From positions 152,656 through 216,655 of the forward strand of contig JBBRYT010000001.1 of assembly GCA_038237435.1 (NCBI GenBank): a stretch of 64,000 bases of DNA. Direction: 5' to 3'. This DNA is from Chthoniobacterales bacterium (GTDB taxonomy: Bacteria; Verrucomicrobiota; Verrucomicrobiia; Chthoniobacterales; UBA10450). The position numbers were made by a program, and so were the translations under genes. Positions 325 through 61,929 of this stretch are shown here, piece by piece (position 1 is the stretch's first letter; every line of letters begins with the position of its first letter). A model generated the notes under the pieces. The model worked only from the letters and a program-made list of their open reading frames with translations. It had not been told where the DNA came from and did no database searches.

Positions 325-1154
325 CGCAGGCGAATGTTGTCGATCAACCGTGTCTTGCCAAAAAAGACTGCGACGGCGAGAAGCGAACTTGGACTGACAG
401 TCTCGATCGGCTGCAAGTTTTCTGCATCGACAATTTCGACGTAATCGACCCGAGCCAATGACGCCGTTTCAATCTGCGCGCGCACTTGCCTAACGAGTGC
501 TGCCGTCGAAGTCTCACTGCTTTGCGCGGCCGCGAGCAAGGCGGCGCGCAACACCGGAGCCTGGTCTCGCTCCTCTTCATTCAGGTATTGATTGCGCGAA
601 CTGCACGCGAGCCCGTCTGCCTCGCGCACCGTTGGCACGCCGATGATCTCAATCGGAAAATCAAGGTCGCGCACGATGCGCCGGATGATCGCCAGTTGTT
701 GAAAATCTTTCTCGCCAAAGACCGCCGCCTCCGGCGCAAGGAGATGAAACAACTTCGCCACCACTGTGGTTACCCCGCGAAAATGTCCCGGACGCGATTT
801 ACCCTCCAGCAGTTGCGAAAGGGTTGTCTCCTCGACCAGGACGGAGCGATCAGCGAGATACATCTCGTTAGGCAAAGGTCGAAAAAGTAAATCGACCCCG
901 GCTTCGTGACATAACTTTTCATCTTCTTCGTTCGGCCGCGGATATTTTTCGAAGTCCGCGCCCGGTTCGAACTGCAGCGGGTTCACAAAAATGCTGACCG
1001 CTACTTCGCCATCAGCGCCCGCTGATTCGCGCGCGATTCGCACCAGCTCCATATGCCCGCGATGCAGTCCGCCCATCGTCGGCACTAGCACGCGTCGTTT
1101 CCCGCTTTGCCTAACGAATGCAAGCGCTCCTTCCGCGGTCTCGATGATTTTCAT
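321..1154 (-). CDS. panC: pantoate--beta-alanine ligase
   Basis: 277 aa with VPTMGGLHRGHMELVR (HxGH-type motif) and PanC-like length. Confidence 0.9.
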   Translation of the reverse strand: MKIIETAEGALAFVRQSGKRRVLVPTMGGLHRGHMELVRIARESAGADGEVAVSIFVNPLQFEPGADFEKYPRPNEEDEKLCHEAGVDLLFRPLPNEMYLADRSVLVEETTLSQLLEGKSRPGHFRGVTTVVAKLFHLLAPEAAVFGEKDFQQLAIIRRIVRDLDFPIEIIGVPTVREADGLACSSRNQYLNEEERDQAPVLRAALLAAAQSSETSTAALVRQVRAQIETASLARVDYVEIVDAENLQPIETVSPSSLLAVAVFFGKTRLIDNIRLR

Positions 1155-1843
1155 TCCAGCCAGATCGCCTGTCGCGCGAAACGAAATTTCCCCGCGCCAA
1201 AGTTGTCCCAGCCTGCGCGCCGCGCCAACTCAGACAGCTCATCGAAAGAAAAGGCGCGCACGGCCGAGGTGCGGCCATCGTTCCGCGTCATGGCATCATG
1301 AAAGATCAGCGCCGTTAACAAAAAAACTCCCACCGTGCATTCGATGCCACGTCGCAAATCCGACACCAGCACACAACCTCGCGATAAATCACGGCAACGG
1401 CGCAACAATTTTACCGCATCCTCCGCGCTGAAATGATGAAGAGCCAGGGTGCAGGTCACAATGTCGAATGGTTCTTCGCTTTGGAAAGTGAGCGCATCTG
1501 CCTGTTGAAAAATAATCTCCGGATAATCCGCGCTGAGCTCTCGCGCGACCTGCAAAGTAGTCGGCTGAAAATCCACCGCGACGATCTCGATCTGCGCTCC
1601 AATCGCACGCGCATGATCCGCGACCAAGCGCGGAATATCGCCGGAACCCGTCGCAAAATCGAGGATCCGCAGTTTGTCGCCGCGCCTGATCCAGCGGCGA
1701 AGGAAATGCCTAACGAGTCGATAACTGCCGAAATATTGATTTAGCCCGCGCAGACTGCGCAGGGCGTCTTTCAATTGCGCGGGCGTTGCGTCTGGCCGGT
1801 CCATTAACTCCGGCTCCGAAGCTGCGAACTGCCGCGCGCTCAT
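1151..1843 (-). CDS. class I SAM-dependent methyltransferase
   Basis: 230 aa. ILDFATGSGDIP glycine-rich SAM motif followed by acidic residue patterns. 4-nt overlap with panC. Confidence 0.75.
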   Translation of the reverse strand: MSARQFAASEPELMDRPDATPAQLKDALRSLRGLNQYFGSYRLVRHFLRRWIRRGDKLRILDFATGSGDIPRLVADHARAIGAQIEIVAVDFQPTTLQVARELSADYPEIIFQQADALTFQSEEPFDIVTCTLALHHFSAEDAVKLLRRCRDLSRGCVLVSDLRRGIECTVGVFLLTALIFHDAMTRNDGRTSAVRAFSFDELSELARRAGWDNFGAGKFRFARQAIWLE

Positions 1844-1851
1844 GCGGCTTG

Positions 1852-2577
1852 TTATTGCGCGAGAAATCGTTGCCAGGATTCCGGCAAGGGCGCCGACTCC
1901 ACGTCGCTCGCGATTCGACCTTCAAACTCCGGCACGAACGAAGTGCTAGTGCCGTAAACCATGATCAAATCTTCCGAGCCTTCCACGCGAAGGGCGTGCG
2001 CCACACCGGGCGGGATGATGATCCCAACATTGTTCGCGCTACGATGATTATCGCCATCGACCAGCAGCCGCATGGAACGCGACGGCATTCCCGCGCGCAG
2101 ATCGCGCAGGACCATTTCCGCCACGCCTTGCACGAAAAACATCATGTCCCACTGCTCGTCATCGTAACGGCGCAGGGAAAAGTTCTCCGGCTCCTTAACG
2201 AATAGTCGCTGAAACCATTCTTCCGGCTTGGATTCGTTAGGCACAAATGGCGGATGGATGTGAAAACCCTTCGCCGTCTGTGCAAACATTCGCGCCGCCG
2301 CCCATTGCTTCGGCCAAAAGCCGATCTTCCTGACGATGCCTTCATCGCGCCGCGCAAATTCACCGAACGATCCGCGATGGCGTTGTGGATAAATTGCGCG
2401 CGGAAAAATTTCCACGCCCGGAATCCAAACATCACTCATCCCTTTCGCGCTGCGATCGAGTTTGCCGGCTTCGATTCCAATTTCAGAAACCTGCTGCTTG
2501 AGATCAGCCTTCGCGTAATCGCGCGTCGTCAGCGCCGCTCGACCTTCCGCAGAGAGTCCATGCCACAATTCGCCCAT
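1852..2577 (-). CDS. RmlC-like cupin (sugar-nucleotide epimerase/isomerase-like)
   Basis: 241 aa. GFHIHPP ... FFVQGVAEMVLRDLR ... IIIPPGVAHAL resembles the dTDP-4-dehydrorhamnose 3,5-epimerase-type cupin core. Sits in a polysaccharide locus. Confidence 0.5.
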   Translation of the reverse strand: MGELWHGLSAEGRAALTTRDYAKADLKQQVSEIGIEAGKLDRSAKGMSDVWIPGVEIFPRAIYPQRHRGSFGEFARRDEGIVRKIGFWPKQWAAARMFAQTAKGFHIHPPFVPNESKPEEWFQRLFVKEPENFSLRRYDDEQWDMMFFVQGVAEMVLRDLRAGMPSRSMRLLVDGDNHRSANNVGIIIPPGVAHALRVEGSEDLIMVYGTSTSFVPEFEGRIASDVESAPLPESWQRFLAQ

Positions 2578-2579: not shown

Positions 2580-4601
2580 CTATTTGCCTAACGAGAAGTC
2601 GGCCGCGGCGCGAGAAAGACTCGGGTTATAATAGGGATCGCGCGCGATCACTTCGCTCCAACGTTCGCGAATGATATCGCTCTCTCTCGGCTCGGCGCTG
2701 CGATGGCGCGTGGCCGATTCGTGATGAATTAACTTCGCGAATGGCGTGTAGACGATGAGATAACCGGCGCGTCGCATTTTCAGGCAGAGATCAACATCGC
2801 TGAAGGTGACCGGCAATTGCGCTTCGTCAAAGCCGCCGACTTCATCGAAGACCTCGCGCCGCGTGAGCAGACAGGCGCCCGTGACCGCGCTGTAGTTGCG
2901 CGTCACCTGCAATTGCCGGCAAACACCTGGATCTTCCGCGCCGAAATTTTTGAACGCGTGCTGAGCGATTCCGCCAACGCCCATGACAACACCGGCGTGC
3001 TGCACGGTCTCATCGGGATAGAGCAAACGTGCGCCGACTGCGCCAACTTCCGGTCGCTGCACGTGCTCGACCATTGTGGTCAACCATTCGCTTTCGATAA
3101 TCTCGACATCGTTGTTCAGGAAAAGCAGCCAGGGCGAATCGGTTTGTTCCACCGCAAGATTATTCATCGCGGAAAAATTGAACGGACCTTCGTAGCGCAA
3201 GACTCGATGCGGCGTCTGCGCGAAATATTGGCGCGCTTCTTCCGTCGCGCTGTCGTTGTCCACGATAACTATTTCGAATTCACGATAGCTCGTCTTGGTG
3301 GTTAGCGTTTCGATACAACGCGACAAAAGCGAAACGCGATCACGCGTCGCGATGATAATGGAAATTTTGCGAGCGTGCTTGATCTCGCGCTTCACCCAAT
3401 AACAATGCGTCCGCCAATCGATCGCGACGTAGCCGGGTTCCCCGCGGCGCTGCAAATGTTCGTCGATCGCTTTTCGGCCCGCTTCCAGAGCGCGCGGTTT
3501 GCGACGAATATTGTCGGCGGTCGAAGTCGCGGTGCGCCTCCAGTGATAAAGCACGCGCGGGATGTGATGAATGCGCGGCGTCTTTTCGACCAGGCGCAGG
3601 AATAGATCGTAATCTTGCGATCCATCGAACTCAGATCGAAAACCGCTCACCTGCTCTAGTAGTGCGCGGCGAAAAACGGTGAAGTGACAGATATAGTTGT
3701 AGGAGAGAAAAAGATCCGGCGACCAATCCGGTTTCAAAAACGGCGCGTCCAATCCCGCATCAATGATCTTGTCTTCGTCGGAATAAATCAGATCGGCGTC
3801 GCGATGCGTTTGCAGCAATTTCACGGTCTGAAAAAGCGCATCCGGCTCGAGCGTGTCGTCGTGATCGAGAATTCCGATGAACTCGCCGATCGCCACCTTC
3901 AGTCCGTCGTTGGAGGCCGCAGAAATACCGCCATTGCTTTTGCGTCTCAGCAGTTTGATTCGCGGATCACCATTCGTTAGGCGATCAAACGCCGGCGGCT
4001 CGGTCGATGCATCATCGATTAGGATCAGTTCCCAATTTTGGTAAACCTGCGCGCGAGCCGATTCGATCGCCGCTTGCAACCACTCGTTAGGCGTATTGAA
4101 GACCGGCGTGATAATCGAAATTAGCGGCGTGTAGGAAAACTTCGCGATCAGTTCTTCCGGCTTCGCGCGATGACGCTCGAACCATTCCTGATATTCTGTC
4201 GCCGGCGAGACATCGCTCCTCGGCTTTTTCCCACGCCGTTTTTGTACTTCGCGAATCAACTTCTTCGGCAGCAGATAAGGCGCGAGCAGGACTTGGCCGA
4301 CTTTGCGCTCGGGCGATTTTCGCAGCGCCTGCTTCTCTTCTTTCAAGATCTTCAGCTGCTTCTTCGCTTCCTTCAGCTTAACGATTTTGTCTTCCAGCTT
4401 CGCGATGTGCCGATCGGCCGCCTCCAGTTCCGACATGCGTGTGCGCAGGGTGCGCTCGAGCCCGCGCAGGCGTTCATTCAGCCGCGCGATCTGTGCCTCG
4501 CTGGATTCGGAGTCTTGCAATACCGCGACATTATATTGATTAGTCGCGACGCGGCATGCTCGATTTCTGCGTCTATCTTTTATATCGCGCGGCGCTAGCA
4601 C
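2580..4601 (-). CDS. glycosyltransferase family 2 with two GT2 domains and an N-terminal coiled coil
   Basis: ISIITPVFNTPNEWL...LILIDDAST and ISIIIATRDR...IVIVDNDS are two GT-A DxD-type modules. The true start is probably downstream (TTG about 4520 or ATG 4436), because the longest ORF overlaps the divergent gene. Confidence 0.8.
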   Translation of the reverse strand: MLAPRDIKDRRRNRACRVATNQYNVAVLQDSESSEAQIARLNERLRGLERTLRTRMSELEAADRHIAKLEDKIVKLKEAKKQLKILKEEKQALRKSPERKVGQVLLAPYLLPKKLIREVQKRRGKKPRSDVSPATEYQEWFERHRAKPEELIAKFSYTPLISIITPVFNTPNEWLQAAIESARAQVYQNWELILIDDASTEPPAFDRLTNGDPRIKLLRRKSNGGISAASNDGLKVAIGEFIGILDHDDTLEPDALFQTVKLLQTHRDADLIYSDEDKIIDAGLDAPFLKPDWSPDLFLSYNYICHFTVFRRALLEQVSGFRSEFDGSQDYDLFLRLVEKTPRIHHIPRVLYHWRRTATSTADNIRRKPRALEAGRKAIDEHLQRRGEPGYVAIDWRTHCYWVKREIKHARKISIIIATRDRVSLLSRCIETLTTKTSYREFEIVIVDNDSATEEARQYFAQTPHRVLRYEGPFNFSAMNNLAVEQTDSPWLLFLNNDVEIIESEWLTTMVEHVQRPEVGAVGARLLYPDETVQHAGVVMGVGGIAQHAFKNFGAEDPGVCRQLQVTRNYSAVTGACLLTRREVFDEVGGFDEAQLPVTFSDVDLCLKMRRAGYLIVYTPFAKLIHHESATRHRSAEPRESDIIRERWSEVIARDPYYNPSLSRAAADFSLGK

Positions 4602-6421
4602 TCGTTAGCGCGATCCCTCTGCGTGCGCTCAATGGCATCGGTCAAACGCTCGGGTTTTTGCATTGGCTGATACTCGGAAAATATCGACGGCTCGCGCGGC
4701 ACAACCTTGCGATCGCATTCGCGCCGAAAAAATCGGACGCCGAATTGCACCGACTGACGCGCAAACATTTCCAACGACTCGGCGCCAATCTGCTTAGCAG
4801 CATGAAAGTCGGCGCGATGCCGCTGGAGAAAGTCGCGGAAGTGGTAGCGATCGAGAACGGCGACGTGATTCACAAGGAATTGCGCGCGGGGAACCCGGTC
4901 GTACTCGTGCTCAGCCACATGGGGAGCTGGGAGATTTTCCCGCAGGTTTTCATGAAACATTTCGGCTACGCGCCGATCGGGACCGTTTACCAGTCGTTAG
5001 GCAATCGCCACATCGACGCCGACGTGCAGCGAAAACGCGCGCGTGCTGGCGTGAAGTTGTTTGATCGCAAAGAAGGATTCCAGAAAACGATCGCGCACCT
5101 GCGCAGTGGCGGTTTGGTTGGGATTCTTTCCGATCAGCATGCGGGTGATCAGGGATTATGGACGCCGCTCTTCGGCCGGTTGGCTTCGACTACGCCGCTC
5201 GGTGGTTTACTAGCGAGGAGAACACACGCCGCAGTCGTAGCTGCCGCGGTTTACGAAAACGGCCCGGGGAAATGGCGGATGGTTTTTACGCCGCGCTTCG
5301 ACTCGTCAGGCGATTCCGTCGAGACCATCACCGCGAAAGCGAACAACGTCATTGCCGATCAAGTTCGCGTCGCGCCCGAAGATTGGTTCTGGGTGCACAA
5401 TCGCTGGAAAACGCCGAAGCCGAATTTCCTTCTGCGCGAATATAAGCGAGGGATGCATGTGCCCGAAGGCGTCGAGTTGAAACCGTTCCGCATTCTCATT
5501 CGCGGCTCGAATTGGCTAGGCGACAGCGTAATCAGCGCCGCGGCGGTGCGCGCGATCAAACGCGGCCGACCCGATGCGCATGTCACGATCGCGACGCCGG
5601 CTAACCTCGTGTCGGTTTGGAAATTGGTGCCGGAAGTTGATGAGGTCTTGTCGTTGCCTAACAAGTCGTTACTCGCGACCTCTCGCCTCTTGAAACGGCA
5701 AACGCCGTTCGACGTCGCCGTTCTTTTCCCAAATTCATTTCGCTCGGCAATGGAAGTTTGGCTCGCCGGAATTCCACGCCGTGTCGGTTATCGCGGGCAT
5801 TCTCGCTCGTGGCTGTTGAATCAGATTGTGCCCGAACCGGACGCGCGCGGCCCGATCAAGCATCAAGTGCATCGCTACCTTCATCTGGCGAAGGAACTCG
5901 GCGCGTCCGACGAATCGAAACCGCCTGTCGCGAGAAAAATTCCTAACAAGTCCTTGAAGATCGGCTTGTGTCCCGGCGCGGAATACGGTCCGGCCAAACG
6001 CTGGCTGCCGGAGCGCTTCGCAGAAGTGGCGACGGCAATCGATGGTCAATGGATTTTGTTCGGCACGGAAAAAGACGCGGAGATCGGAAAGACAATCGAG
6101 AACTCGTTAGGCGAAAAATGCGTCAATCGCATCGGCAAAACGACGCTCGAAGAGTTGATCAATGAGCTGCGCGAATGCCGCCTGCTCCTCACCAACGACA
6201 CCGGCACGATGCATCTCGCCACTTTGCTCGGTGTCCCGGTCGTCGCCGTTTTCGGTTCGACCGAAGATCGCCTGACTGGTCCGCTCGGCGCGGGTAATAT
6301 CGTAGTGCGTCATCACGTGGAATGCAGTCCGTGTTTCCTGCGCGAATGCCCGATCGATTTTCGCTGCATGAAAGCGGTCACGTCCGAAGAAGTTACCGCC
6401 GCGATTTTGCGCGTGTTATAG
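4556..6421 (+). CDS. fusion of an LpxL/HtrB-type lipid A late acyltransferase with a GT9 ADP-heptose:LPS heptosyltransferase (WaaF-like)
   Basis: N-terminal half has SHMGSWE (HX4E) and ILSDQHAG motifs of the lauroyl acyltransferase family. C-terminal half has ILIRGSNWLGDSV, GAEYGPAKRWLPERF and LLLTNDTGTMHLA, typical of GT9. Confidence 0.8.
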   Translation: MLDFCVYLLYRAALALVSAIPLRALNGIGQTLGFLHWLILGKYRRLARHNLAIAFAPKKSDAELHRLTRKHFQRLGANLLSSMKVGAMPLEKVAEVVAIENGDVIHKELRAGNPVVLVLSHMGSWEIFPQVFMKHFGYAPIGTVYQSLGNRHIDADVQRKRARAGVKLFDRKEGFQKTIAHLRSGGLVGILSDQHAGDQGLWTPLFGRLASTTPLGGLLARRTHAAVVAAAVYENGPGKWRMVFTPRFDSSGDSVETITAKANNVIADQVRVAPEDWFWVHNRWKTPKPNFLLREYKRGMHVPEGVELKPFRILIRGSNWLGDSVISAAAVRAIKRGRPDAHVTIATPANLVSVWKLVPEVDEVLSLPNKSLLATSRLLKRQTPFDVAVLFPNSFRSAMEVWLAGIPRRVGYRGHSRSWLLNQIVPEPDARGPIKHQVHRYLHLAKELGASDESKPPVARKIPNKSLKIGLCPGAEYGPAKRWLPERFAEVATAIDGQWILFGTEKDAEIGKTIENSLGEKCVNRIGKTTLEELINELRECRLLLTNDTGTMHLATLLGVPVVAVFGSTEDRLTGPLGAGNIVVRHHVECSPCFLRECPIDFRCMKAVTSEEVTAAILRVL

Positions 6422-6856: not shown

Positions 6857-8473
6857 ATGGCTGCGGCCACTCGCACTTATTCGCTGCACGATACGTTGAT
6901 CGGGACGTCGGCTCTTCCACCGCCGCCGACACGACACGCGCTCTTTGTTTTTCTCATTGCGCTAGCGGCCATTCTTAATTTCGGTAGCGCGGGCTGGAGC
7001 GACATTCACGATGGCAGCGAAGGGATCTTTGCCAGCGACGCGCGTCAGTTGGCGCAGGGAAATGGCGCAGAAGTACCGCAACCGACGCTGCTGCATTGGC
7101 TGATCGTCGCTTCCCTCAAGATGTTTGGCGTTCGCGCGGCCTCGGCGCGATTTCCGATCGCGGCGGCGATGGTCTTTTCGATCGCGTTTACTTTTCTTAT
7201 CGGTGAACACATCGCCGGCTATTGGCGCGGATTTGCGGCGGGTCTCATTCATCTCTGTTGTTTGGGGACATTTGTTTGGGGACGAATCATCACGCCCGAA
7301 CCACTTTTCGCCGCCTTTCTCGGCGGCGCGATTTACTGCGCGGTTTGCGCGTATCAGCGTCAACGAACGAGGCGATGGTGGCTCTCGGGAGTTCTATTCT
7401 TTATCGCGCTCTGCTGGATCACCCGTGGTGCGATGGGTCTGATTTATCCGCTCATAATCCTTGGCTTGCTCGCGCTTTCTTTTCGGGAAGCCAGGATGCG
7501 TTTCAGCCAGATGCCGTGGTTGAGTGTGATTCTTTTCCTTGTCTTCGCGGCAGTCTGGATGATTTGGCTGAAGCGTTATCTGCACACGCCGTCGAACTAC
7601 TCGTTAGACCAAAATGGCCGCGTGCTCTGGCCGTTCTTGAAATGGCAGTTCGCGTGGGCATTTCCCGCAGCGATCCTGATTTTGCCGGGAGTTTGTTTCG
7701 CGTTAAGTAAAATCCTGCGGGCTTACGAATTCGATTTCGTTGATGCCGTTCCGCTCTACTGGATGGCGGTTGTATTTCTGCCGCTCCTCATTTTGCCGCA
7801 TCGACAAGACTACAATTCGATTCCGATGTGGGGCGGGTTCGCGCTTTGGGCGGCGTGCGCGTGGGATCGGATGCCGCGACGATTTCGCCTCATCGGTCTC
7901 GGGTTAACAGGTGCGGCTGGTCTGACGCTCGCACTTATTTCCGGCCACGATCTTTCGCATCTCATTCCGATTTCGGCCGGCCACGATTGGCGCTCAATTC
8001 TACTTCTCTCAGGATTGCCGCTCCTCGCGGCGGCGCTGCTAGCCGGTTATTTCGCCATGCAGGATCGCGAGACGCTCGCGCTCGCCATCGTCATACTCGC
8101 TGCTATCCCCATGGGTTTGAGCGCAGCGGAAAGTATGTCCCGCCTCGGCGCGGAATTTTCTCTGGCCAACGCGGCTCAATTCCTCGCGCCGCGACTGGAA
8201 GAGACCGGCGAAATCTTCTACGAAGGTTCCGCCTTCGATAGCAGTAGTCTCAGGTTTTATCTCGAGAAAAATATTTCGCTCATGACGAACGCCGAAACCG
8301 AAGTGAACGCGATGGAAAAAATGAGCGCGAATCATCCAGTCTTCCTCATCATTCACAAAGAGCGCGTGCCGTATTGGCAGGATCGATTAACCGAGCGGTT
8401 CCACATTTTTCACCAGGAAACCACCTGCGGACCGCACGTCGTGGTCGGGAATGATCTCCAGTTGAAAAACTGA
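6857..8473 (+). CDS. ArnT/PMT-like membrane glycosyltransferase (GT39/GT83-like)
   Basis: 538 aa polytopic membrane protein. The N-terminal periplasmic-loop acidic motif (WSDIHDGSEG) and many TM segments fit undecaprenyl-phosphate-sugar dependent GT-C enzymes. Confidence 0.6.
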   Translation: MAAATRTYSLHDTLIGTSALPPPPTRHALFVFLIALAAILNFGSAGWSDIHDGSEGIFASDARQLAQGNGAEVPQPTLLHWLIVASLKMFGVRAASARFPIAAAMVFSIAFTFLIGEHIAGYWRGFAAGLIHLCCLGTFVWGRIITPEPLFAAFLGGAIYCAVCAYQRQRTRRWWLSGVLFFIALCWITRGAMGLIYPLIILGLLALSFREARMRFSQMPWLSVILFLVFAAVWMIWLKRYLHTPSNYSLDQNGRVLWPFLKWQFAWAFPAAILILPGVCFALSKILRAYEFDFVDAVPLYWMAVVFLPLLILPHRQDYNSIPMWGGFALWAACAWDRMPRRFRLIGLGLTGAAGLTLALISGHDLSHLIPISAGHDWRSILLLSGLPLLAAALLAGYFAMQDRETLALAIVILAAIPMGLSAAESMSRLGAEFSLANAAQFLAPRLEETGEIFYEGSAFDSSSLRFYLEKNISLMTNAETEVNAMEKMSANHPVFLIIHKERVPYWQDRLTERFHIFHQETTCGPHVVVGNDLQLKN

Positions 8474-8675: not shown

Positions 8676-9464
8676 TTGCGCCTCAATCGCTATCTCGCGG
8701 CGGCCGGCGTCGGTTCGCGGCGGCATTGCGATGAATTAATCGCGGCCGGTCGGGTGACGATCAACGGTCGCGTCTGCACCGACTTCAGCACGCAGCCTAA
8801 CGAGACTGATCACGTCAAGGTTGGCAGCAAAATGGTCCGACGGGAACGCCGGCTCGACATCATGCTGCACAAACCGGCGGGATTTGTTTCGACTCGCACC
8901 GACCCGAACGCGCGCGATACGATTTTCGATTTGTTGCCGCCGCATTTCCCGCGGCTCTTCAACGTGGGCCGACTCGACGCGCAAAGCGAAGGGCTGTTAA
9001 TTCTGACGAACAACGGCGATCTCGCGCAGCAGCTAACGCATCCGCGTTTCAAGATCGACAAGGATTACGAAGTGACGCTCGACAAACCTTGGGATCCGGA
9101 AAACGCGCCGAAACTGCTCCGCGGCATCATGCTCGATGGGAAGCGCGCGAAGCTGGAGCGCATTCAACAACTGACGACGATCAAATTGCGCGTGATCTTG
9201 CGGCAGGGAATTAACCGGCAAATCCGCCGGATGTTTTACGATGTTGGCTACGAAGTGGAAAAACTGATCCGCACGCGCGTGGGAAATTTGCGCTTGGGAG
9301 ATTTGCCGCGCGGGCATTGGCGTCCCCTAACGACTGCTGAATTGCATTCGCTCTCTACTCCACCTCGGTCCGCAAAATCTCGAGGGGCGGAGTCGTCCCG
9401 ATCCCGCGGCTCGTCAGCAAACCGATCACGACCGTCAACCCGCTCACGGCCGCGACCGCAATAA
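8676..9464 (+). CDS. rluB: pseudouridine synthase, RsuA/RluB family, with an Arg/Ser/Pro-rich C-terminal tail
   Basis: TTG start. S4 domain (RLNRYLAAAGVGSRR) plus catalytic GRLDAQSEGLLILTN motif. Confidence 0.85.
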   Translation: MRLNRYLAAAGVGSRRHCDELIAAGRVTINGRVCTDFSTQPNETDHVKVGSKMVRRERRLDIMLHKPAGFVSTRTDPNARDTIFDLLPPHFPRLFNVGRLDAQSEGLLILTNNGDLAQQLTHPRFKIDKDYEVTLDKPWDPENAPKLLRGIMLDGKRAKLERIQQLTTIKLRVILRQGINRQIRRMFYDVGYEVEKLIRTRVGNLRLGDLPRGHWRPLTTAELHSLSTPPRSAKSRGAESSRSRGSSANRSRPSTRSRPRPQ

Positions 9465-11883
9465 GCAGGGGCCAAAACGACGGCGCGTAATCGAGTTTGA
9501 AAACGAAGCGCGCCAGTGCCCAACTCGAGGCGAGTGCGAGCACAATGGCCGTCGCACTCGCGAGCAAACCGAGTGCGAAATATTCCGCGCAAAGAATCTG
9601 GTAAATCTGCGCGCGCGATGCGCCGAGCGTGCGCAGCAGCACACTTTCCTTCAATCGCTGATAACGTCCGCTCCAGATTGTGCTCCCGAGTACGATTAAC
9701 CCCGCCGCGAGGGTGTAGAGCGAAATCAAACGAATGACGAGCGCGACTTTGCCCAGGATGGAATCCACCGTTTGAATCACGGTGGTGAGATCAATGGCGG
9801 AGACGTTTGAGAATTTAGCTACCACCGCGTTCTGTAATCGCGCGGAAGCCGCCGGATCGGGCACGCGACTGACGAGCACGTTAAAGGTCGGCGCCGACTC
9901 GAGCACGCCGACCGGAAAGACGACAAAGAAGTTCGTCTGAAATCTTTTCCAATCGATGTCGCGCAAACTTGCGATGCGAGTCTTGAGCGGCACGCCCTGC
10001 ACATCGAAGACAAGTTCGTCGCCGATTTTCGCTTTCCAGTCGTCGGCCAGTTCCTTGTCGAGCGAGACCGGAACCACATCGCCAGGTTTGTACGCAACGC
10101 GCCCGATCCACTGGCCCGCGATAATTTTTTCGGTCTCGGCCAGCACCTCGCGAAAAGTCGAACGATATTCGCGCTGCAGTTCCCACTCCGGAATTTTGTT
10201 TTGCTTGTCGGCCACCAGATCACTCGTTAGGCGATCTTTGATTTGCGTGAGCCGCATCGTGACGACCGGAGCCTGCTGGATGATCGGCAGGCCTAACGAG
10301 CGTACGATTTCCGTCACGCCGGTGGTTTGGTCGGGTTGAATGTCGAAGAGAAAAATGTTCGGCTGATCGTTCGCCCCGATCGATTTGAACTGCGCGAGCA
10401 ACACTTCGCGGGTCAGATAAAGATTAAGGAGCAGGAACGTGCCGAGCCCGAGCGAAATCGTGAGCAGCAAGGTGCGGTTGTTCGGCCGATAGAGATTCGC
10501 GAGACCCTGGCGCAGCGCAAAACTCCAGCCGTGCGGGAAAAATTTTCGCACGAGCACGATAAGTAACTTCGCCACACCGATGAAAATCAAAATGGCGAGG
10601 CCGAGCGCAGCGGCGAAGATCAGGCCGCGTAGCCATTGGTCGCTTTGCTCGATACCGAACGCCGTCACGCTCGCCGCGATCAGCAGGTAAATTACAATTA
10701 CCGCGCGATCGCGGCGCGGCCGTTCCTGTTCGACATGCGCGCGCAAAACAATCAGCGGCGACAATCGGCGGAATCGCAGCAGCGCCGGCAACGCGAACAG
10801 GATGCAAATTCCCAGACCGATGAACATGCCGCGCAAAATCGGAAGCCACGCCAGCGTCGTTGCAATCGGCAAGGGCATGAATGATTTCAAGAGCCTCGGC
10901 AACGTAATTTGCATCACGATCCCCAGCGCCGCGCCGGCCAGCGCGCCGACAAACCCCATCGCAGCCGCTTGCAACACGTAAACGAAAGCCGTGCCGCGCG
11001 CCGAGGCGCCGAGACAACGCAGGATCGCGCCGGTCTTTTGTTTTTGCTGGAGATGCGCGGCGATCGCACTGGCCACACCGACCGCGCCGAGCAGCAGGGC
11101 AACGAAACCGACCAGATTCAAAAAACGGTAAAGATTGTCCAGCGAGTTGCCGAGATCGCGTTTCTGTTTCGCGACGGTGTCGTAGTCGAGGCCGAACTTC
11201 TGAATCTGCGGAACGAGTAACGCGATGCGTTTCTCCGCGTCGGTGCCGGCCGCGAACTTAATGTAATCGCGATAGCGCACGACGCTGCCGGGCTTAAGCA
11301 AATTCGTGGCCGCTAAATCCTGCAACGGAATGTAAACGCTCGGTGTGAACGACGTGGCCGCGGAACCCTCCCCGGGTATTTTCTTCAACGCACCGGCGAT
11401 GATGAAATCGACGTCACCGATCTTCACATGATCGCCGGGCTTCGCGCCGAATTGAATGAGCAGGCTTTCTTTAACGACCACGCCACCGCCCTGGCGAAAA
11501 TCGCGCGCCGCGTTTAACGGATCAGTTTCCATCGTTCCGTAAAATGGAAAATCGCCCGCGAGTGCGCGCACCGCCGTGAGCCGTGTGCCTTTCGCGAATG
11601 TGGCCATGGTAGAAAAACGAACTTCGCGGGCCTGCGGTTCGCCTAACGAGTGCAAGAACGCCTCTTCTTCCGGCGTAAAAGCGCGGCGTGAAACGATAAT
11701 CAGATCCGCGCCAACCAACGTGCGCGCCTGGTCATCGATCGCTTGCGCGAGTGTGATGCGAAACGAGCCGATGCTGACCAGCGCCGCGATACCGAGCGTA
11801 ATCGAAATCGAAAAAGCGAGCAGCCGTCGCCGGCTCGAACGGCTGTCGCGCCACGCCATTTTCCAAATGAAGGACGGATGCAT
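9355..11883 (-). CDS. FtsX-family ABC transporter permease (YbbP-like, duplicated MacB/FtsX module)
   Basis: 842 aa. Two FtsX-type 4-TM modules with large extracytoplasmic loops. Immediately downstream of the ATPase, as in the ybbA-ybbP arrangement. Confidence 0.85.
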   Translation of the reverse strand: MHPSFIWKMAWRDSRSSRRRLLAFSISITLGIAALVSIGSFRITLAQAIDDQARTLVGADLIIVSRRAFTPEEEAFLHSLGEPQAREVRFSTMATFAKGTRLTAVRALAGDFPFYGTMETDPLNAARDFRQGGGVVVKESLLIQFGAKPGDHVKIGDVDFIIAGALKKIPGEGSAATSFTPSVYIPLQDLAATNLLKPGSVVRYRDYIKFAAGTDAEKRIALLVPQIQKFGLDYDTVAKQKRDLGNSLDNLYRFLNLVGFVALLLGAVGVASAIAAHLQQKQKTGAILRCLGASARGTAFVYVLQAAAMGFVGALAGAALGIVMQITLPRLLKSFMPLPIATTLAWLPILRGMFIGLGICILFALPALLRFRRLSPLIVLRAHVEQERPRRDRAVIVIYLLIAASVTAFGIEQSDQWLRGLIFAAALGLAILIFIGVAKLLIVLVRKFFPHGWSFALRQGLANLYRPNNRTLLLTISLGLGTFLLLNLYLTREVLLAQFKSIGANDQPNIFLFDIQPDQTTGVTEIVRSLGLPIIQQAPVVTMRLTQIKDRLTSDLVADKQNKIPEWELQREYRSTFREVLAETEKIIAGQWIGRVAYKPGDVVPVSLDKELADDWKAKIGDELVFDVQGVPLKTRIASLRDIDWKRFQTNFFVVFPVGVLESAPTFNVLVSRVPDPAASARLQNAVVAKFSNVSAIDLTTVIQTVDSILGKVALVIRLISLYTLAAGLIVLGSTIWSGRYQRLKESVLLRTLGASRAQIYQILCAEYFALGLLASATAIVLALASSWALARFVFKLDYAPSFWPLLIAVAAVSGLTVVIGLLTSRGIGTTPPLEILRTEVE

Positions 11884-12548
11884 CAGACTGCTTCGCCGTT
11901 GCGCAGGCGAATGGTACGCTCAGTTAGTTTCGCCACATCGGGATCGTGCGTGACCAGCACCAGCGCGGTGCCCGCGCTGCGATTCAGCTCGAACATGATC
12001 TCGATAATTCCGCTGCTCGTTTCGGCATCCAGATTGCCGGTCGGCTCGTCGGCGAAAAGAATCTGCGGACGATTGATGAAAGCACGGGCGAGCGCGACGC
12101 GCTGTTGCTCGCCGCCGGAAAGTTGCGCCGGATAATGGTCGATGCGCTCGCCAAGACCAACGCGGCCTAACAAGTCCAAACCGAGCGCACGCGCGGAACG
12201 ATCCCCGCGCAATTCCATCGGCACGGTGACGTTTTCCAAAGCGGTGAGCGTCGAGATGAGCTGGAAGTTCTGAAAAACGAATCCGACATGCTGATTGCGA
12301 ATGCGCGCGCGTTCGTCTTCGTCGCAATCGGCCAGCGGATTTCCTGCGAGCAAAACGGAACCGGAAGTCGGCCGATCCAAACCGGCGCAAAGCCCGAGTA
12401 AAGTCGTCTTGCCGCTGCCGGATGGACCGAGGATCGAACAGGTCGCGCCTTCGGGCAGGGTCAATGAAATGTCCTTCAGGACAGTGAGCGCACCCGCCGC
12501 GGTGCGATAAGTTTTCGTGAGATGCTGGACGTCGAGGATGGTGGTCAT
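11883..12548 (-). CDS. ABC transporter ATP-binding protein (YbbA/LolD-like)
   Basis: Walker A GPSGSGKTT, signature LSGGEQQR, Walker B ILFADEPTGNLD. Confidence 0.9.
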   Translation of the reverse strand: MTTILDVQHLTKTYRTAAGALTVLKDISLTLPEGATCSILGPSGSGKTTLLGLCAGLDRPTSGSVLLAGNPLADCDEDERARIRNQHVGFVFQNFQLISTLTALENVTVPMELRGDRSARALGLDLLGRVGLGERIDHYPAQLSGGEQQRVALARAFINRPQILFADEPTGNLDAETSSGIIEIMFELNRSAGTALVLVTHDPDVAKLTERTIRLRNGEAV

Positions 12549-15019: not shown

Positions 15020-15026
15020 CGAGTGG

Positions 15027-15629
15027 TTAGTATTTGACCGAGCAACCGTACGGCTTCGTGTCCGGATTGCTCACTGGCTTGCCGGCCATCGCTTCGTCGA
15101 GCGCAACCTTCACGTAGTTGGTCGAAGCCGGAATGTCGGCTGGATTTGGAGTGGCTTTGCTATCGATGGCGCCTTCGTAAACGATTTTTCCGTCCGGATT
15201 AATCACGAACATATGTGGCGTGTTTTTCGCGCCATAGGCTTGACCGGCTTTGCCTTCCGGATCGAGCAGGAGCTTGGAACTCATCTTCCATTCCGAAGCT
15301 TTCTTTGTGGCGGCTTCCGGGGTCAGGTTGCCTTCTTTACCAGCGGCGGAGGAATCGATCGACATCCAGACGACGCCTTTGCCTGCAAATTCCTTCTGCA
15401 ACTTCTGCATGTTGCCGCTGCCATAATGCTTTTTCACAAACGGGCATTCGGGATTGAACCATTCGAGCACGACCCACTTGCCTTTGTTTTCGCCTAACGA
15501 GTGCTTTTGTCCGTTGGCATCAGTCAAGGCGAAGTCGGGTGCGGCAGTGCCGACCTTGGGTGATTCAGTCGCGAACAATGAAGTTGCGGCGACGGACGCG
15601 AGGATAGTTAGGAATAGTTTTTGTTTCAT
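15027..15629 (-). CDS. secreted thioredoxin-like redoxin (AhpC/TSA-TlpA-like)
   Basis: Signal peptide. WVVLEWFNPECPFVKKHY CxxV/C-type thioredoxin-fold motif. Confidence 0.8.
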   Translation of the reverse strand: MKQKLFLTILASVAATSLFATESPKVGTAAPDFALTDANGQKHSLGENKGKWVVLEWFNPECPFVKKHYGSGNMQKLQKEFAGKGVVWMSIDSSAAGKEGNLTPEAATKKASEWKMSSKLLLDPEGKAGQAYGAKNTPHMFVINPDGKIVYEGAIDSKATPNPADIPASTNYVKVALDEAMAGKPVSNPDTKPYGCSVKY

Positions 15630-17988: not shown

Positions 17989-18003
17989 AATTTGCCTAAC
18001 GCG

Positions 18004-36146: not shown

Positions 36147-36151
36147 CGAAC

Positions 36152-45050: not shown

Positions 45051-45058
45051 TCGTTAGG

Positions 45059-51035: not shown

Positions 51036-51203
51036 CTTGCCGCTCCTATTATCATCCTTCGTGCCAGCGTTGAAAAATGCGCGTGGGCGGCAAAGAACTA
51101 CTCGTTAGGCCGCGTCCAATCTGCCTATGGATCAAGGCTTTGCGCATCTGAAAAGATTTGGACCCGAAACGCGAGGGCGCCTTTTGACTCGACACCGAGT
51201 GGA

Positions 51204-52235
51204 TCATTTCGAGTCCTTCTCTGGATCCAAAATAGAGCCGTTGGCCTCGAAATGAGACACATTCTGCAAATAACGGACTAGGGTCGAACGCGAAATGCCC
51301 AGAAGCTTCGCCGTCAGGCGTTGATTACGATTGGCGCGAGCAAAAACAAACTGCACATGACGCGTCAAGGCGGACGACAGCGATAGATCCTGCCCGTTTG
51401 CGTCGCCCACTACTTCTGGCGTTTTCGTGTCGGCAGTACGCCTGGTCGATTCCGGGAGATCGGCCGAGAAGATCACGTTCTCCGGCAAAATTACTCCGCC
51501 TTCACAAAAAAGCGTCATGGTGTGCACGGTGTGACTCAGCTCACGTAAGTTTCCGCGCCAGTCGTGCGCCAGCAATCGCGCCATCGCTTCCGGATGAATG
51601 GCCCTGATCTTTTTTCCTTCCCGCGCCGCGGAAGCCTTTAGTTCCGTGGCGATCAAGGCCGGCAATTCCTCCAGCCGCTCACGCAACGGCGGAATCAAAA
51701 GAGTGACGCCGTTGAGTCGATGAAAAAGATCCTCTCGAAATTTTCCGTCGGCCACGCGCTGACGCAGCGAGCAATTGGCCGCGCAAATAATTCGCACATC
51801 GCAGCGCAACATTCGTTCGGAACCAAGCCTTTCGAATTCGCCATACTCCAGTGCGCGCAAAATTTTTACCTGCGCCAGTGCGCTCATCTCGGAAATTTCG
51901 TCAAGAAAAAGCGTACCGCTGTGCGCCAGCTCGAATTTTCCTTTCACGGCCTGCTGCGCACCGGTGAATGCGCCCCGCTCATGACCAAACAACTGACTTT
52001 CCAACAACGTGTCGCTCATCGCCGAAGCGTTGAAGGAAACGAAGGGCCGCCCTGCACGCAGGGATGAATTATGAATCGCGTGCGCCAGCAACGTTTTGCC
52101 CGTGCCCGTTTCCCCGAGGAGCACTACCGGCACGTCGGATTTGGATGCGACCGCGGCGAGCTGCAAACAACGCGCCATAGCGTCGGTGGTTGTGGTCAGG
52201 TCTTCGAGTTTCAAACCCGAAAGTGGCGCTTGCAT
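51204..52235 (-). CDS. sigma-54-dependent transcriptional activator lacking an N-terminal sensor/receiver domain
   Basis: 343 aa. The AAA+ domain begins about residue 25 (GETGTGKT, ERGAFTGA, LFLDEI). C-terminal Fis-type HTH (LLGISRSTLVRYL). Confidence 0.9.
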   Translation of the reverse strand: MQAPLSGLKLEDLTTTTDAMARCLQLAAVASKSDVPVVLLGETGTGKTLLAHAIHNSSLRAGRPFVSFNASAMSDTLLESQLFGHERGAFTGAQQAVKGKFELAHSGTLFLDEISEMSALAQVKILRALEYGEFERLGSERMLRCDVRIICAANCSLRQRVADGKFREDLFHRLNGVTLLIPPLRERLEELPALIATELKASAAREGKKIRAIHPEAMARLLAHDWRGNLRELSHTVHTMTLFCEGGVILPENVIFSADLPESTRRTADTKTPEVVGDANGQDLSLSSALTRHVQFVFARANRNQRLTAKLLGISRSTLVRYLQNVSHFEANGSILDPEKDSK

Positions 52236-52249
52236 TCGTTAGGCAGTCG

Positions 52250-59327: not shown

Positions 59328-59819
59328 CTAGAGCAGCAATTGCAGATAAGTGACGTCCAGCCAGCGATCGAACTTCCGGCCGATCTCGCGAAATGTTCCG
59401 ACGCGAACGAACCCTAACGACTCGTGCAAAGCGATGCTCGCCGTCGATTCTGTGCAACACCCAGCCACTAGTACGTGGTGACCAATTTTTCGCGCGCGCT
59501 CGATTAAATCCGAAAGAAGCGCGCGTCCAATTCCGCGCCGATGAAAATCCGGATGCAGATAAACCGAAACATCCGAGCTGTGACGATAACCGCCGCGCGG
59601 ATTATGTGGCGAGAGAGCGCCCCAGCCGATCAGTTCACCGTCGCTTTCCACGGCGACCGCAGGATGTTTTTCGGAACGCTGCTCGAACCAGGCCACGCGC
59701 TCGGTCAGCGTCTGCGGCTCGGTGATGAAAGTCGAAGTGGTGTAGGCAATGTAATGATTGAGCAACTCTGTCATGGCCGGCGAGTCGTCTTTGTTGGCGA
59801 GTCGGAGCAAGAAAGTCAT
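59328..59819 (-). CDS. GNAT acetyltransferase, phosphinothricin/methionine-sulfoximine N-acetyltransferase-like
   Basis: 163 aa. [16 protein letters not shown] ... [27 protein letters not shown]. Confidence 0.8.
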
Positions 59820-60976
59820 CGGATCGAATGTAATGCCTGGGCGAAGTCGGCCAGCAAATCACGCTCGTCTTCCAACCCGATGGAAATGCGCACGAGACTG
59901 TCGCTCACTCCCATGGCGGCGCGTTGATCACTCGTTAGACTTTCGGCCCACATCGCCGCCGGATGAACGAGCAATGTAGTGAAACCGCCAAGGCTGGCGG
60001 CATAACGGCCGAGCTTGACCGCGTGAATAAATTTCTCCGCCGCGGCGTGACCACCGCGCAATTCCACACTCAGCATTCCAGTTCCGCCGCTCATCTGCGC
60101 GCGCGCCAGCGCATGCTGCGGATGTGACTCGAGAAAGGGATAATTTACGCGCGCGATCGCCGGATGCGTTTCGAAAAATCGGGCGACGGCCAGCGCGTTG
60201 CTATTATGTCGCTCGACGCGCAACTCTAGCGTGCGCAGGCCGCGCAAGAGCAGCCAGGAATCGAACGGACTGAGCACCGCGCCGACGACGAGGTGAAAGC
60301 GCCACGCGCGTTCGAGGAATTCTTTCGCGCCGACAATCACGCCGCCCATCATATCGTGATGACCGCTTAGATATTTCGTCGCGCTGTGAATCGAGACATC
60401 GATGCCCAGTTCGAGCGGTCGCTGATTAATCGGCGTGGCGAAAGTATTGTCGACGATCGTTATGATCCCGCGCGCCTTCGCTGTTCGCGCGACCGCTCGC
60501 AGATCAGTCAGGCCCATGAGCGGATTGGCGGGCGTCTCGACGTAGATCAATTTCGTATTCGGCTGAAGCGCAGCGGCAAAGTTGGCGGTTTGCGCGACGT
60601 GCGTGCATTCAATTCCCCAGCGCGGAAGAATTTCTCGGAATAAGGTCGCGGCTGAGACGTAAACATTTCGTTGCGCCACGATGTGATCGCCTCTCTGCAG
60701 CACGCTCAAGACGGCGGTAAAAATCGCGCCCATGCCGGAGGTCGTGACCAAGGCCGCTTCGCCGCCTTCCATTTCCGCGAGTAACGCTTCGACCTGTTCA
60801 TGACCCGGATTGCCGTAACGGGTGTAATATTCGCGCGGCTGAATGGTCTGAGAAATTTCCGCGAAGGCCGCGATCGATTCCGCTTCGAAACTCGTGCTCT
60901 GCCAGATGGGAGATGTAATCGCGTTCGTCGCAGTCCGAGAGCGCGCGCCGTGAATGAGTTTGGTTTGCGGATTCAT
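59816..60976 (-). CDS. Cys/Met-metabolism PLP enzyme (cystathionine gamma-synthase/beta-lyase/methionine gamma-lyase family)
   Basis: 386 aa. [15 protein letters not shown] lysine motif. Confidence 0.9.
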
Positions 60977-61929
60977 GCAATTGCCTTTGTGCGAAAGGTC
61001 ACGATCAAAGCAATCCCTGAAACGACCAGCGCACTTCCCGCGAGAAGTTCCGACGCGAGTTTCTCGCCGCCCAACCAGCTACCTAAAAAGACGGCGACGA
61101 TCGGATTGACATAGGCGTAGGTCGAAGCGCGCGTCGCCTCGACATTGCGCAGGAGCCAAAGATAAGCGGAAAAACCGACGATTGATCCGATGGCGGCCAG
61201 ATAGATCATCGCGCCTAACGAGTGCAAGGAAACTGCGCTGGGATGGAAATGCGCGAACTCGCCGTGGAGCAACGCGGTGATGAGACCGAACACGCCCCCG
61301 CAGATCATCTGCATCGCGGCCATCATAAAACCCGATGTTTCGTGGCGCACGCGCACGGCGTAAAGCGACGCCGCCGACCAAAGTAATTCGCCAATCGTCA
61401 GGATGACGAGACTTAGACTCAGTTGAGGAGAAAAAGAGAACCGCGTCGGCTGCACGATGACGGCGACGCCAAAAGTCGCGAGAGCAATCCCGAACCACAC
61501 CGGCAAGCGCGGTCGTCGCAAGGTTCCGCTCAGCCAACCCAGCAACACCATCACCGCCGGAACGAGCGCGATAATGACAGCTGCCGTGCCGGACGGGATG
61601 TATTGCTCCGCGAATGTCACGCTGCCGTTGCCGGCAAGAATAATTCCGCCGCCGACGAGGGCCGCTATGCGCCAGTCACGCGCGCTCGGCTGCGGCGCGC
61701 CGCGGCCGCGCAGAAACAGATATAGTAACGATCCCGCCACGGACCAGCGCACACCCGCCATGATCATCGGCGGGATGGTTTCGATCGCGACGCGAATACC
61801 GAGAAAGGTCGAACCCCAGATCAAATAAACCGCCGAGAAGGCGAGAATGATCCGTACCGTCTGGGGACGAAAATGAAGGCGTGATGACTCGATCCGCGGC
61901 AGCGCCGGGCAAGCTTCGATTGGTGCCAT
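60973..61929 (-). CDS. EamA/DMT-family transporter
   Basis: 318 aa, 10 TM helices, duplicated EamA pattern. Confidence 0.85.

Follow-up and report, generated by a model that had tools for sequence, protein, structure and literature searches.

The word and its copies in the window

The 64-kb stretch of Chthoniobacterales DNA analysed here over its full length (the window) carries, within and between its genes, many copies of the 10-base word CTCGTTAGGC, which is the subject of this report. Genes in the window were called by open reading frame (ORF) length and codon-position G+C and were annotated with Pfam. The word was found in 31 exact copies spanning positions 488 to 61222, 12 on the + strand and 19 on the − strand, and both the number and the coordinates were the same as in a preliminary description of this DNA, which had counted 19 copies in one orientation and 12 in the other. 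The copies are given below with their strand and setting; sense or antisense refers to the gene, the tripeptide is the frame in which the word is read, and L009, L014 and L033 are loci of relatives described in the next section.

488..497, −: panC (321-1154, −), sense, L-V-R
864..873, +: panC, antisense, P-N-E
1708..1717, −: S-adenosylmethionine methyltransferase gene (1151-1843, −), sense, L-V-R
2586..2595, −: final codons of the GT2 gene (2580-4601, −), immediately upstream of the ORF 1852-2577
4083..4092, +: GT2 gene, antisense, P-N-E
6103..6112, +: lpxL-GT9 fusion gene (4556-6421, +), sense, S-L-G
8795..8804, −: pseudouridine synthase gene (8676-9464, +), antisense, P-N-E; QPAx in orthologues
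10223..10232, +: MacB/FtsX permease gene (9355-11883, −), antisense, L-T-S
10291..10300, −: MacB/FtsX permease gene, sense, S-L-G; 68 nucleotides (nt) from the 10223 copy
11641..11650, −: MacB/FtsX permease gene, sense, S-L-G; identical 16-mer at the orthologous site of L014
12713..12722, −: GDSL lipase gene (12588-13211, +), antisense, P-N-E
13789..13798, −: SDR gene (13181-13981, +), antisense, P-N-E
15014..15023, −: between the gene for the desaturase (13994-15019, +), which takes its TAA stop codon (15017-15019) from the word, and that for the redoxin
15492..15501, −: redoxin gene (15027-15629, −), sense, S-L-G; HSLS in orthologues
16893..16902, +: dsbD (15633-17738, −), antisense, P-N-E
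17357..17366, −: dsbD, sense, L-V-R; xVKL in orthologues
21360..21369, −: threonine aldolase-like gene (20874-21917, −), sense, S-L-G; site occupied in 14 carriers by the word or by the 8-nt core
23956..23965, −: putA (22230-25331, +), antisense, L-T-S; followed by the half-word TAACGAG; missing from all 76 aligned orthologues, L009 included
26687..26696, +: intergenic, upstream of adk; kept in L009
27754..27763, −: fmt (27600-28523, +), antisense, L-T-S; kept in L009
28064..28073, −: fmt, antisense, P-N-E; kept in L009 and L033
31491..31500, −: proS (31162-32742, −), sense, L-V-R; common to L014, not L009
33161..33170, +: CAP-domain gene (33137-33853, −), antisense, P-N-E
34320..34329, −: between rplM and rpsI
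37707..37716, +: ends the ferritin-like gene (37711-38460, −), whose TAA stop is the TTA of the word at 37711-37713; 5' end of the RNase P RNA 12 nt away
38187..38196, −: ferritin-like gene, sense, L-V-R
38484..38493, +: ispH (38457-39359, −), antisense, P-N-E
43364..43373, +: acnA, sense, S-L-G
45050..45059, +: between the DUF2071 and TPR genes
51101..51110, +: intergenic; extended form AACTACTCGTTAGGC
61213..61222, −: gene 60973-61929 (−), sense, S-L-G

The expected number of copies was 0.09 according to 100 dinucleotide-preserving shuffles, none of which held more than one, and 0.06-0.15 according to Markov models of orders 0-3 trained on the window, in line with the order of 0.1 estimated earlier. 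Models of orders 4-5 were contaminated by CTCGTTAGGC itself. The over-representation in the window amounted to ~300-fold, and when 10-mers were ranked by observed over expected counts, all the top ones were sub-words or variants of the same motif. Allowing at most one mismatch raised the count to 53 copies, against 3.3 expected. The 22 one-mismatch variants (TTCG.. six times, CTTG.. five times, GTCG.. four times, ..GGG, ..GAC and CTCGTCAGGC twice each, CGCG.. once) agreed with the earlier figure of about 20 and with its list; they were located as follows.

1109..1118, −: TTCGTTAGGC, panC
2233..2242, +: TTCGTTAGGC
3973..3982, +: TTCGTTAGGC
4993..5002, +: GTCGTTAGGC
5302..5311, +: CTCGTCAGGC
5656..5665, −: CTTGTTAGGC
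7600..7609, +: CTCGTTAGAC
12165..12174, −: CTTGTTAGGC
17199..17208, +: GTCGTTAGGC
17994..18003, −: CGCGTTAGGC, intergenic
22646..22655, +: CTTGTTAGGC, putA
23454..23463, +: CTCGTCAGGC, putA
25541..25550, +: CTCGTTAGGG
32325..32334, −: GTCGTTAGGC, proS
34753..34762, +: CTCGTTAGGG, intergenic
35066..35075, −: GTCGTTAGGC
35906..35915, +: CTTGTTAGGC
36141..36150, −: TTCGTTAGGC
36706..36715, +: TTCGTTAGGC
44012..44021, +: CTTGTTAGGC, acnA
52235..52244, +: TTCGTTAGGC, intergenic, followed by the half-word TCGTTAG
59931..59940, +: CTCGTTAGAC

The word is non-palindromic. An A preceded it in 22 of the 31 exact copies, as had been noted for most of them, and weaker preferences were recorded for A at −4 (19/31) and for C or G at −3, so that a frequent extended form was AAC[CT]ACTCGTTAGGC. 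No other conserved base was seen within 20 bases on either side of the 31 aligned sites, and a repeat search of the window revealed no larger repeat unit around the word. The half-word tandems reported at 23956 and 52235 were real. It was also observed that two one-mismatch copies, in 1108-1135 and 52218-52245, share 20 identical bases (GCGCTTGCATTCGTTAGGCA), 10 of them beyond the word, which could be chance aided by the extended consensus or the trace of short-patch copying.

Most exact copies (25/31) were found inside genes, 13 in sense and 12 in antisense orientation, and all four stop-free frames were used (P-N-E 9, S-L-G 7, L-V-R 6 and L-T-S 3). Two copies (15014 and 37707), lying in frames with stops, supply the stop codon of a gene, and four (26687, 34320, 45050 and 51101) are fully intergenic. 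Both the four frames and the four intergenic positions had been put forward in the preliminary description, with the conclusion that the word is not a protein motif, and each was confirmed. The word contains rare codons: CCT, TTA, AGG and CTA account for 8%, 6%, 3% and 5% of the codons of their own amino acids, respectively. In spite of this, 9 of the 11 P-N-E tripeptides were spelled CCTAACGAG (0.17 expected from codon usage) and 11 of the 16 S-L-G tripeptides TCGTTAGGC (0.15 expected), and the word also spelled 7 of 18 L-V-R (0.04 expected) and 4 of 8 L-T-S tripeptides (0.02 expected). The P-N-E tripeptide itself was 5.5 times as common as amino-acid frequencies predict (11 against 2.0). When word sites were compared with aligned orthologues that lack the word, the same peptide was present in only 4 of 206 comparisons; usually, one or two residues were changed to those that the word encodes (HSLS to HSLG, QPAx to QPNE, xVKL to LVRL, APDE to SPNE). 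Hence, the word overrides codon choice and, at tolerant sites, amino-acid choice, and it acts at the DNA level.

A protein motif was ruled out by the four frames, the rare codons and the peptides unlike those of orthologues, and an RNA or transcription-level motif by the balance of sense and antisense copies. The Rfam scan of the window returned only three RNA genes:

37296-37695, −: RNase P RNA (class A)
47308-47380, +: tRNA-His(GTG)
48399-48472, +: tRNA-Arg(TCG)

A mobile-element remnant, such as a repetitive extragenic palindrome (REP) or a miniature inverted-repeat transposable element (MITE), is longer or palindromic, intergenic, and inserted relative to empty sites. None of this applied to the word, of which only 10-15 nt were conserved within unconserved flanks and no longer repeat family existed; its sites differed from their orthologues by substitutions, with no insertions or deletions. 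An assembly or adapter artefact was contradicted by the presence of the word at orthologous sites in independently assembled metagenome-assembled genomes (MAGs) from many studies. Such trivial causes are already refuted, and we left them a negligible probability.

Related loci, a second word and orthologous sites

Relatives were found by using the PutA protein of the window as a query, and 80 loci of ~20 kb around putA were fetched. They belonged to MAGs of the Chthoniobacterales (Verrucomicrobiota, PVC group), Candidatus Udaeobacter included; these organisms are reported to be among the most abundant soil bacteria, and very few members have been cultured. The closest PutA was 90% identical over its best segment, so the species of the window is not among the reference genomes.

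The core TCGTTAGGC of the word, called word A from here on, occurred at 2-20 copies per 10 kb in carrier loci. Carriers were found in the small clade of the window (L009 and L001, more weakly L002 and L004) and in a separate clade of 13 genomes (L044, L058, L050, L052 and others). The density of the core was 8.5 per 10 kb in carriers against 0.33 in non-carrier relatives of similar composition, a 26-fold difference; the full 10-mer was ~65 times denser in carriers, and the densest relatives, for instance L044, held one word per 0.5 kb. Two dialects were distinguished, A-C-TCGTTAGGC in the clade of the window and N-TCGTTAGGC in the other carrier clade, the first base being T, G or C depending on the genome. 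In L014, L004, L029, L073 and L019 word A was present at 1-3 per 10 kb, low yet above background, and both exact copies of L014 were placed at sites orthologous to window words. These low-density lineages could hold a decaying word set after the driving factor was lost.

An unrelated word B, given as AAGATCGACAT or AAGATCGACA(T), reached 4-16 copies per 10 kb in L005 and in a Udaeobacter-like clade (the loci being L005, L041, L018, L040, L053, L067, L036, L025, L047, L026, L030, L072 and L054); it was absent as a word from the window. A third state among the 80 loci was the lack of both words, and carrier status was patchy on the putA tree. In L011 and L018 words A and B occurred together in one genome and even in one gene: their putA carried A words at the sites shared by the A clade and B words at those shared by the B clade. 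This could reflect ancient co-occurrence or repeated convergence at word-permitting peptides, and with either origin a directional force acts in each carrier lineage.

Further, metagenomes were scanned with one 15-mer form of the word. Of the 120 loci obtained, mostly single chance matches, 23 held at least two core copies, the densest being L232 (9 in 5.2 kb), L185 (6 in 5.3 kb) and L187 (5 in 9.9 kb). The word-rich loci carried unrelated genes (an MFS transporter, a PDZ-domain protein, MacB permeases, GCS2, NosZ/NosD) and showed little or no similarity to the putA region, which argues that the word is dispersed in carrier genomes. Confinement to the window, which would have spoken against the preliminary description, was thus not observed, as the word was present in at least 20 related genomes and at these unlinked metagenome loci.

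The orthologous sites were compared in carrier pairs of 65-85% nucleotide identity, where 44-63% of the words had an exact counterpart in the partner genome, compared with 5-19% of the other 9-mers in these alignments. The mismatches at these sites were bimodal, either 0-1 or 3-6, so a site is spelled either as the word or in the ordinary way that codon preference favours; word B showed the same conservation. The closest relative, L009 (~89% nucleotide identity), shared four of the six words in the aligned 12 kb, and at all sites compared where L009 and other carriers share words, non-carriers had unrelated sequence. The flanks of shared words had diverged to the same degree as the remaining alignment, so the sharing is not accounted for by recent transfer, and recent recombination tracts around the shared words were looked for and not seen.

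The all-or-none, multi-base differences at orthologous sites might also be produced by a biased repair or mutation process, in which a sequence-specific mismatch-repair or methylation-linked mechanism of the very-short-patch type converts near-words while no function is selected. The patchy, module-like distribution and the presence of two words in one genome would fit such a process; these features recall the link between methyltransferases and iterated palindromes described in one published study (PMC4390886). A conversion sink would deplete near-words, whereas the one-mismatch neighbours were enriched in carriers, mostly as transitions, and none was depleted relative to the non-carrier control (C at position 1, 28 against 2; T at position 2, 26 against 3); variants of G3, T4 and G7 of the 9-mer were no commoner than in those controls. 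In addition, 9-11 contiguous, non-palindromic specified bases lie far beyond known methyltransferase or Vsr-type sites, and no DNA methyltransferase was found in the window by Pfam annotation. We considered this process decidedly unlikely.

The orientation of the copies was then weighed against a polar motif, namely a Chi site for RecBCD/AddAB or a guide for FtsK of the KOPS (FtsK-orienting polar sequence) or SRS type. Such words, like the architecture-imparting sequences (AIMS), are short, over-represented, lineage-specific and present also within genes, but they are strongly skewed within a replichore, typically 5-8 bases long and few-fold enriched, unlike the longer, unskewed and ~300-fold over-represented word A. 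The strand ratio in the window was 12:19 (P = 0.28), or 27:26 with variants included, and over 16 carrier loci, all with putA on the + strand and mostly syntenic around it, the ratio was 153:150. The co-orientation of copies, which would have pointed away from an uptake role, was therefore not found, and the even ratio in a co-oriented set makes a Chi- or KOPS-like role very unlikely, to the point of being scarcely credible. The GC skew of the window was too weak to show the replication direction. Word B had a moderate skew of 51:101, counted at non-independent orthologous sites in syntenic loci.

The density along the window was uneven. The first 38.6 kb, with the housekeeping genes panC, lpxL, dsbD, putA, adk, fmt, pyrH, frr, proS, rplM, rpsI and ispH, contained 27 exact copies, in accordance with the high density noted there before, and the remaining 25.4 kb contained four (P = 0.001, or P = 2e-5 once variants were counted). 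The stretch poorest in words, 45-61 kb, is lower in G+C, adjoins tRNA-His and tRNA-Arg, and encodes accessory-type functions (a sigma-54 activator, HlyD, a C39-peptidase ABC exporter with cNMP domains, and GNATs); it is possibly a more recently acquired genomic island. The words were not significantly evenly spaced in the dense part (coefficient of variation of the gaps 0.74 against 0.97 for random placement, P = 0.06). In the 88 viral contigs with a 14-mer form of the word, the core never occurred more than twice; the matches are thus due to chance, and carriage of the word by phages was ruled out.

Shifts of density at a scale of tens of kb would also be expected if the word were bound by an abundant protein of the nucleoid-associated or chromosome-organising kind, being kept for chromosome architecture and unrelated to uptake. 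The cyanobacterial word HIP1 (GCGATCGC) was proposed as a chromosome-structuring site in 2018, and the arguments made for it, conservation within and between ORFs, strand symmetry and lack of a gene-level role, apply equally here. However, sister lineages have no word or an unrelated one, so a structuring function would need to be one that cells can do without and that arose anew several times; the stretch with few words is the one with accessory genes by tRNA genes, for which residence time is the simpler account; and later work on HIP1 points to transformation. A chromosome-structuring role was therefore regarded as unlikely.

Several features unrelated to the word were recorded as well. Short-period tandem or periodic repeats contained GAATGACGAA in L016 and CTCCTACTCC in L046, and a repeat of 147-nt period in L073 (21700-22450) is probably a repeated protein domain. 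A third candidate word, GTCATCCCGAGC, in L052 and L044 was rejected, being the terminal inverted repeat of an unrelated 110-160 bp MITE; its inverted pairs, GTCATCCCGAGC(G/C).., accounted for 12 copies in L052 (e.g. 6279/6388, 7764/7923, 13265/13381 and 18316/18430) and 7 in L044. In the window, the aconitase gene has an in-frame TAA at 41955-41957 (..RYQFL*WGQQAF..), at a position where homologues have a Lys; the gene could be a pseudogene, or the TAA could be due to strain variation or to an error in the sequence.

The match to the integron attC core

Arrays of gene cassettes, in which small ORFs alternate with imperfect inverted repeats of 105-135 nt, were present in three of the related loci, and a single repeat in a fourth:

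L001, 9000-14450: cassette array
L027, 15150-21385: cassette array (15.2-20.9 kb) with an IS110-family transposase inside
L048, 1100-4650: cassette array (1.1-3.9 kb) and intI-like fragment
L051, 13778-13888: single attC

The cassette products were cupins, HAD, GNAT and SnoaL/DUF4440 proteins, and integrons have been reported in Verrucomicrobia. The attC sites form a homogeneous family, of which thirteen could be aligned and folded in the canonical way into an R box, an unpaired spacer, an L box with bulged bases and a variable loop, the fold being supported by compensatory changes at 13 of 27 pairs. At their 3' end all 13 aligned sites read, on the top strand, ..ATCTTGT(G)TCTCGTTAG[GA]NN. Within it CTCGTTAG was invariant in 13/13, and its reverse complement CTAACGAG in the 16 sequences of a first alignment that included two incomplete sites. 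With an R' box of GTTAGGC the full 10-mer word is present in attC. Judged by the alignment, the word corresponds to the last three spacer bases (CTC) and the G|TTRRRY crossover core at the attC 3' end of this clade, GTTAGGC / GCCTAAC within it being a canonical attC core and its inverse.

The locus L048 was informative in this respect. The 16.6 kb outside its integron were free of the word, but the exact 10-mer was present in three of the four attC sites, so the match is not simply the result of a genome-wide force acting on attC. The integron of L048 adjoins a redoxin gene orthologous to that of the window, which is next to the word at 15014. Beside the array, on the opposite strand, lies a 68-residue ORF (4428-4634) with a weak Pfam match to Phage_int_SAM_4 (E = 0.003, below the curated cut-off). 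It resembles the N-terminus of integron integrases (..HYSVRTEEAYVGW..) and was regarded as a truncated intI-like fragment. This fragment is followed by a GIY-YIG gene, and L048 also has an attI-like GATGTTAGCC.

It could be proposed from this that the word is integron-linked, that is, the duplex form of the attC core, whose spread was caused or used by an integrase or a related tyrosine recombinase. The words might act as secondary recombination sites, undergo short-patch conversion as pseudo-sites, or, as inverted pairs, provide the material that turns into new attC sites. The arrays and the invariant core in relatives, the word-bearing attC sites of the otherwise word-less L048 and the intI-like fragment adjoining its array are consistent with this, 9-11 bases are the size of a tyrosine-recombinase arm, and a chance match of 10/10 to a recombination core was put at ~1e-3, a rough estimate made after the match had been seen. 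Several observations stand on the other side. No integrase reaction is known to rewrite target DNA by substitution, and thousands of integrase core sites within genes would be hazardous. No attC structure, L boxes, hairpin, cassette or integrase were found around the words in the 64-kb window, and the five upstream bases differ (TTGTT in attC, AACYA at the word). The attC sites of carriers were no more word-like than those of the non-carrier L048, and word B, AAGATCGACAT, behaves alike but lacks a GTT core and any demonstrated link to attC. Nor was there support for a selection of inverted pairs of words resembling attC, since 9 such pairs were counted against 8 in the opposite arrangement. 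An integron-linked spread was accordingly judged unlikely.

Two other connections were tried and rejected. Seeding of the L001 array at a solitary word was not supported, as there was no word between 14450 and the locus end, past the upper end of the array. A likeness of word B to the attC L box (AAGATC..GAC) requires a 3-base gap and was judged to be at chance level.

The attC match could also be secondary to a self-DNA tag role of the word, either because cassettes adapted to carry an uptake word or because an abundant attC end seeded the specificity of a receptor. The match is also the basis of a bolder and rather improbable reading, in which word and integron are two faces of one system, with self-recognition borrowed from or shared with the integron core, or with the integrase making new attC sites out of the dispersed words and capturing chromosomal genes as cassettes. 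If self-recognition shares the integron core, gene cassettes would be a preferred currency of exchange; if dispersed words feed new attC sites, this would bear on the unsolved origin of integron cassettes. The match in any case joins two previously unconnected fields. Neither it nor word B had been noticed in the preliminary description.

A candidate self-DNA tag and known systems

The preliminary description had called the word uptake-signal-like. We propose, tentatively and with somewhat less than half of our confidence, that it is a lineage-specific self-DNA tag tied to natural transformation, resembling the DNA uptake sequence (DUS) of Neisseriaceae, the uptake signal sequence (USS) of Pasteurellaceae and HIP1. 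In the DUS and USS systems a pilus-associated receptor, such as a ComP-type pilin, prefers word-bearing DNA, and the word accumulates by molecular drive. By analogy, a sequence-specific protein would read the word on double-stranded DNA, most likely as part of the natural-transformation pathway, at uptake or during processing or recombination of the incoming DNA. Word-bearing fragments from conspecifics would be preferentially taken up or recombined, and mutations creating or improving a word would spread by molecular drive, possibly with selection, while mutation and codon preference would erode the words. The expected equilibrium would be a word every 0.5-2 kb, on both strands and in any tolerant frame, with a one-mismatch halo and few copies in recently acquired DNA. 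We infer that the transformation machinery is the reader and uptake-driven drive the force.

The features that match this reading are the abundance, the action on DNA, the strand symmetry, the distortion of codons and amino acids, the upkeep across species, the dialects, the genome-wide spread and the scarcity in the likely island and in viral contigs. It was on these properties, shared with DUS, USS and HIP1, that a transformation-linked self tag was chosen as the best explanation. To our knowledge, competence in this clade is known only as ComEC genes reported for soil Verrucomicrobia populations. As indirect support, homologous recombination was reported in all 19 populations analysed in a study of soil, in which ComEC is listed for five populations (6527, 7383, 4402, 3696 and 6721), four of them labelled Verrucomicrobia. 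These populations came from the same meadow as several loci of the present analysis.

A number of points weigh against a transformation-linked tag. No competence gene, be it for ComEC, DprA or a type IV pilus, was annotated by Pfam in the 64-kb window. About half of the known DUS and USS are situated in transcription terminators, often as inverted pairs, whereas only 4-6 of the 31 window copies were intergenic or at gene edges (~2.5 expected), no copy in the window was part of a hairpin, and inverted word pairs were not enriched. Some relatives, with one word per 0.5 kb (L044), are denser than DUS or USS. The two words of L011 and L018 and the patchiness of carriers mean that a simple one-receptor story needs extra steps. 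Some of the conservation at orthologous sites may have arisen by words appearing repeatedly where the peptide permits them, and a self tag does not predict that word and integron attC core are identical. The earlier suggestion was therefore upheld with regard to density, halo, dialects, orthologous-site conservation and scarcity in the probable island and viral contigs, and not with regard to the terminator and inverted-repeat association, so that an uptake role stays a tentative candidate, argued from likeness to known tags and a little short of an even chance.

Full-text literature searches found neither word in a microbial context and nothing linking uptake sequences or competence to this clade, in agreement with the earlier remark that no word of this sequence had been described. 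We regard word A as a hyperabundant genomic word of the putative self type in a new phylum, for which no earlier description was found. Its position in housekeeping genes against codon and amino-acid preference, its upkeep across species and its replacement in sister lineages suggest that biased DNA exchange or a related DNA-recognition process shaped the carrier genomes. The word can serve as a compositional marker separating native from foreign DNA in MAGs and offers a concrete 11-mer handle on DNA recognition in the clade; if uptake is confirmed, it could aid genetic manipulation, as HIP1 does in cyanobacteria. Its unusual features are that it is almost purely intragenic, that unrelated words alternate or co-occur in one order, and that it is identical to the integron core of the clade.

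Compared with integron attC sites (R' G|TTRRRY, R'' RYYYAAC), the word contains the same GTTAGGC / GCCTAAC core in which the attC of this clade ends. However, an attC is an imperfect inverted repeat R''-L''...L'-R' of 57-141 nt with extrahelical bases, located at a cassette end, near intI or in an array, whereas the window words are solitary duplex 10-mers in housekeeping genes.

The likeness to DUS (GCCGTCTGAA, with dialects) and USS (AAGTGCGGT / ACAAGCGGT) is broader. These are likewise non-palindromic 9-12-mers with a weaker extended flank, which occur about once per kb, equally on both strands and in several reading frames, have a one-mismatch halo, clade-specific dialects and positions conserved across species, distort the encoded peptides and are scarce in foreign DNA. 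The word differs in belonging to another phylum, the Verrucomicrobiota, here uncultured soil bacteria, no carrier being known to us in culture, in reaching one copy per 0.5 kb, and in having unrelated counterparts in sister lineages, with two words together in some genomes. As far as we know, tags for the exchange of self DNA have been experimentally established only in two proteobacterial families; a 2025 survey treats only the same two.

HIP1 is a candidate third case. It is 15-300-fold over-represented, mostly intragenic and read in every frame, it is conserved inside ORFs as well as between them, and it plays no part at the peptide or RNA level; the word resembles it in all of this. Its density has a periodicity of 10-90 kb, and that of the word also varies over tens of kb, with a single step at ~38.6 kb in a window of 64 kb that is too short for periodicity. 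In contrast, HIP1 is an 8-base palindrome with known methyltransferases and is nearly phylum-wide, while the word, 10-11 bases long and not a palindrome, is not known to have a modifying enzyme and is patchy within one order. The function of HIP1 was long obscure; it is now linked to natural transformation, the efficiency of which it appears to raise, and its abundance co-varies with proteins placed by the authors of that work in the DNA-uptake system of the cell.

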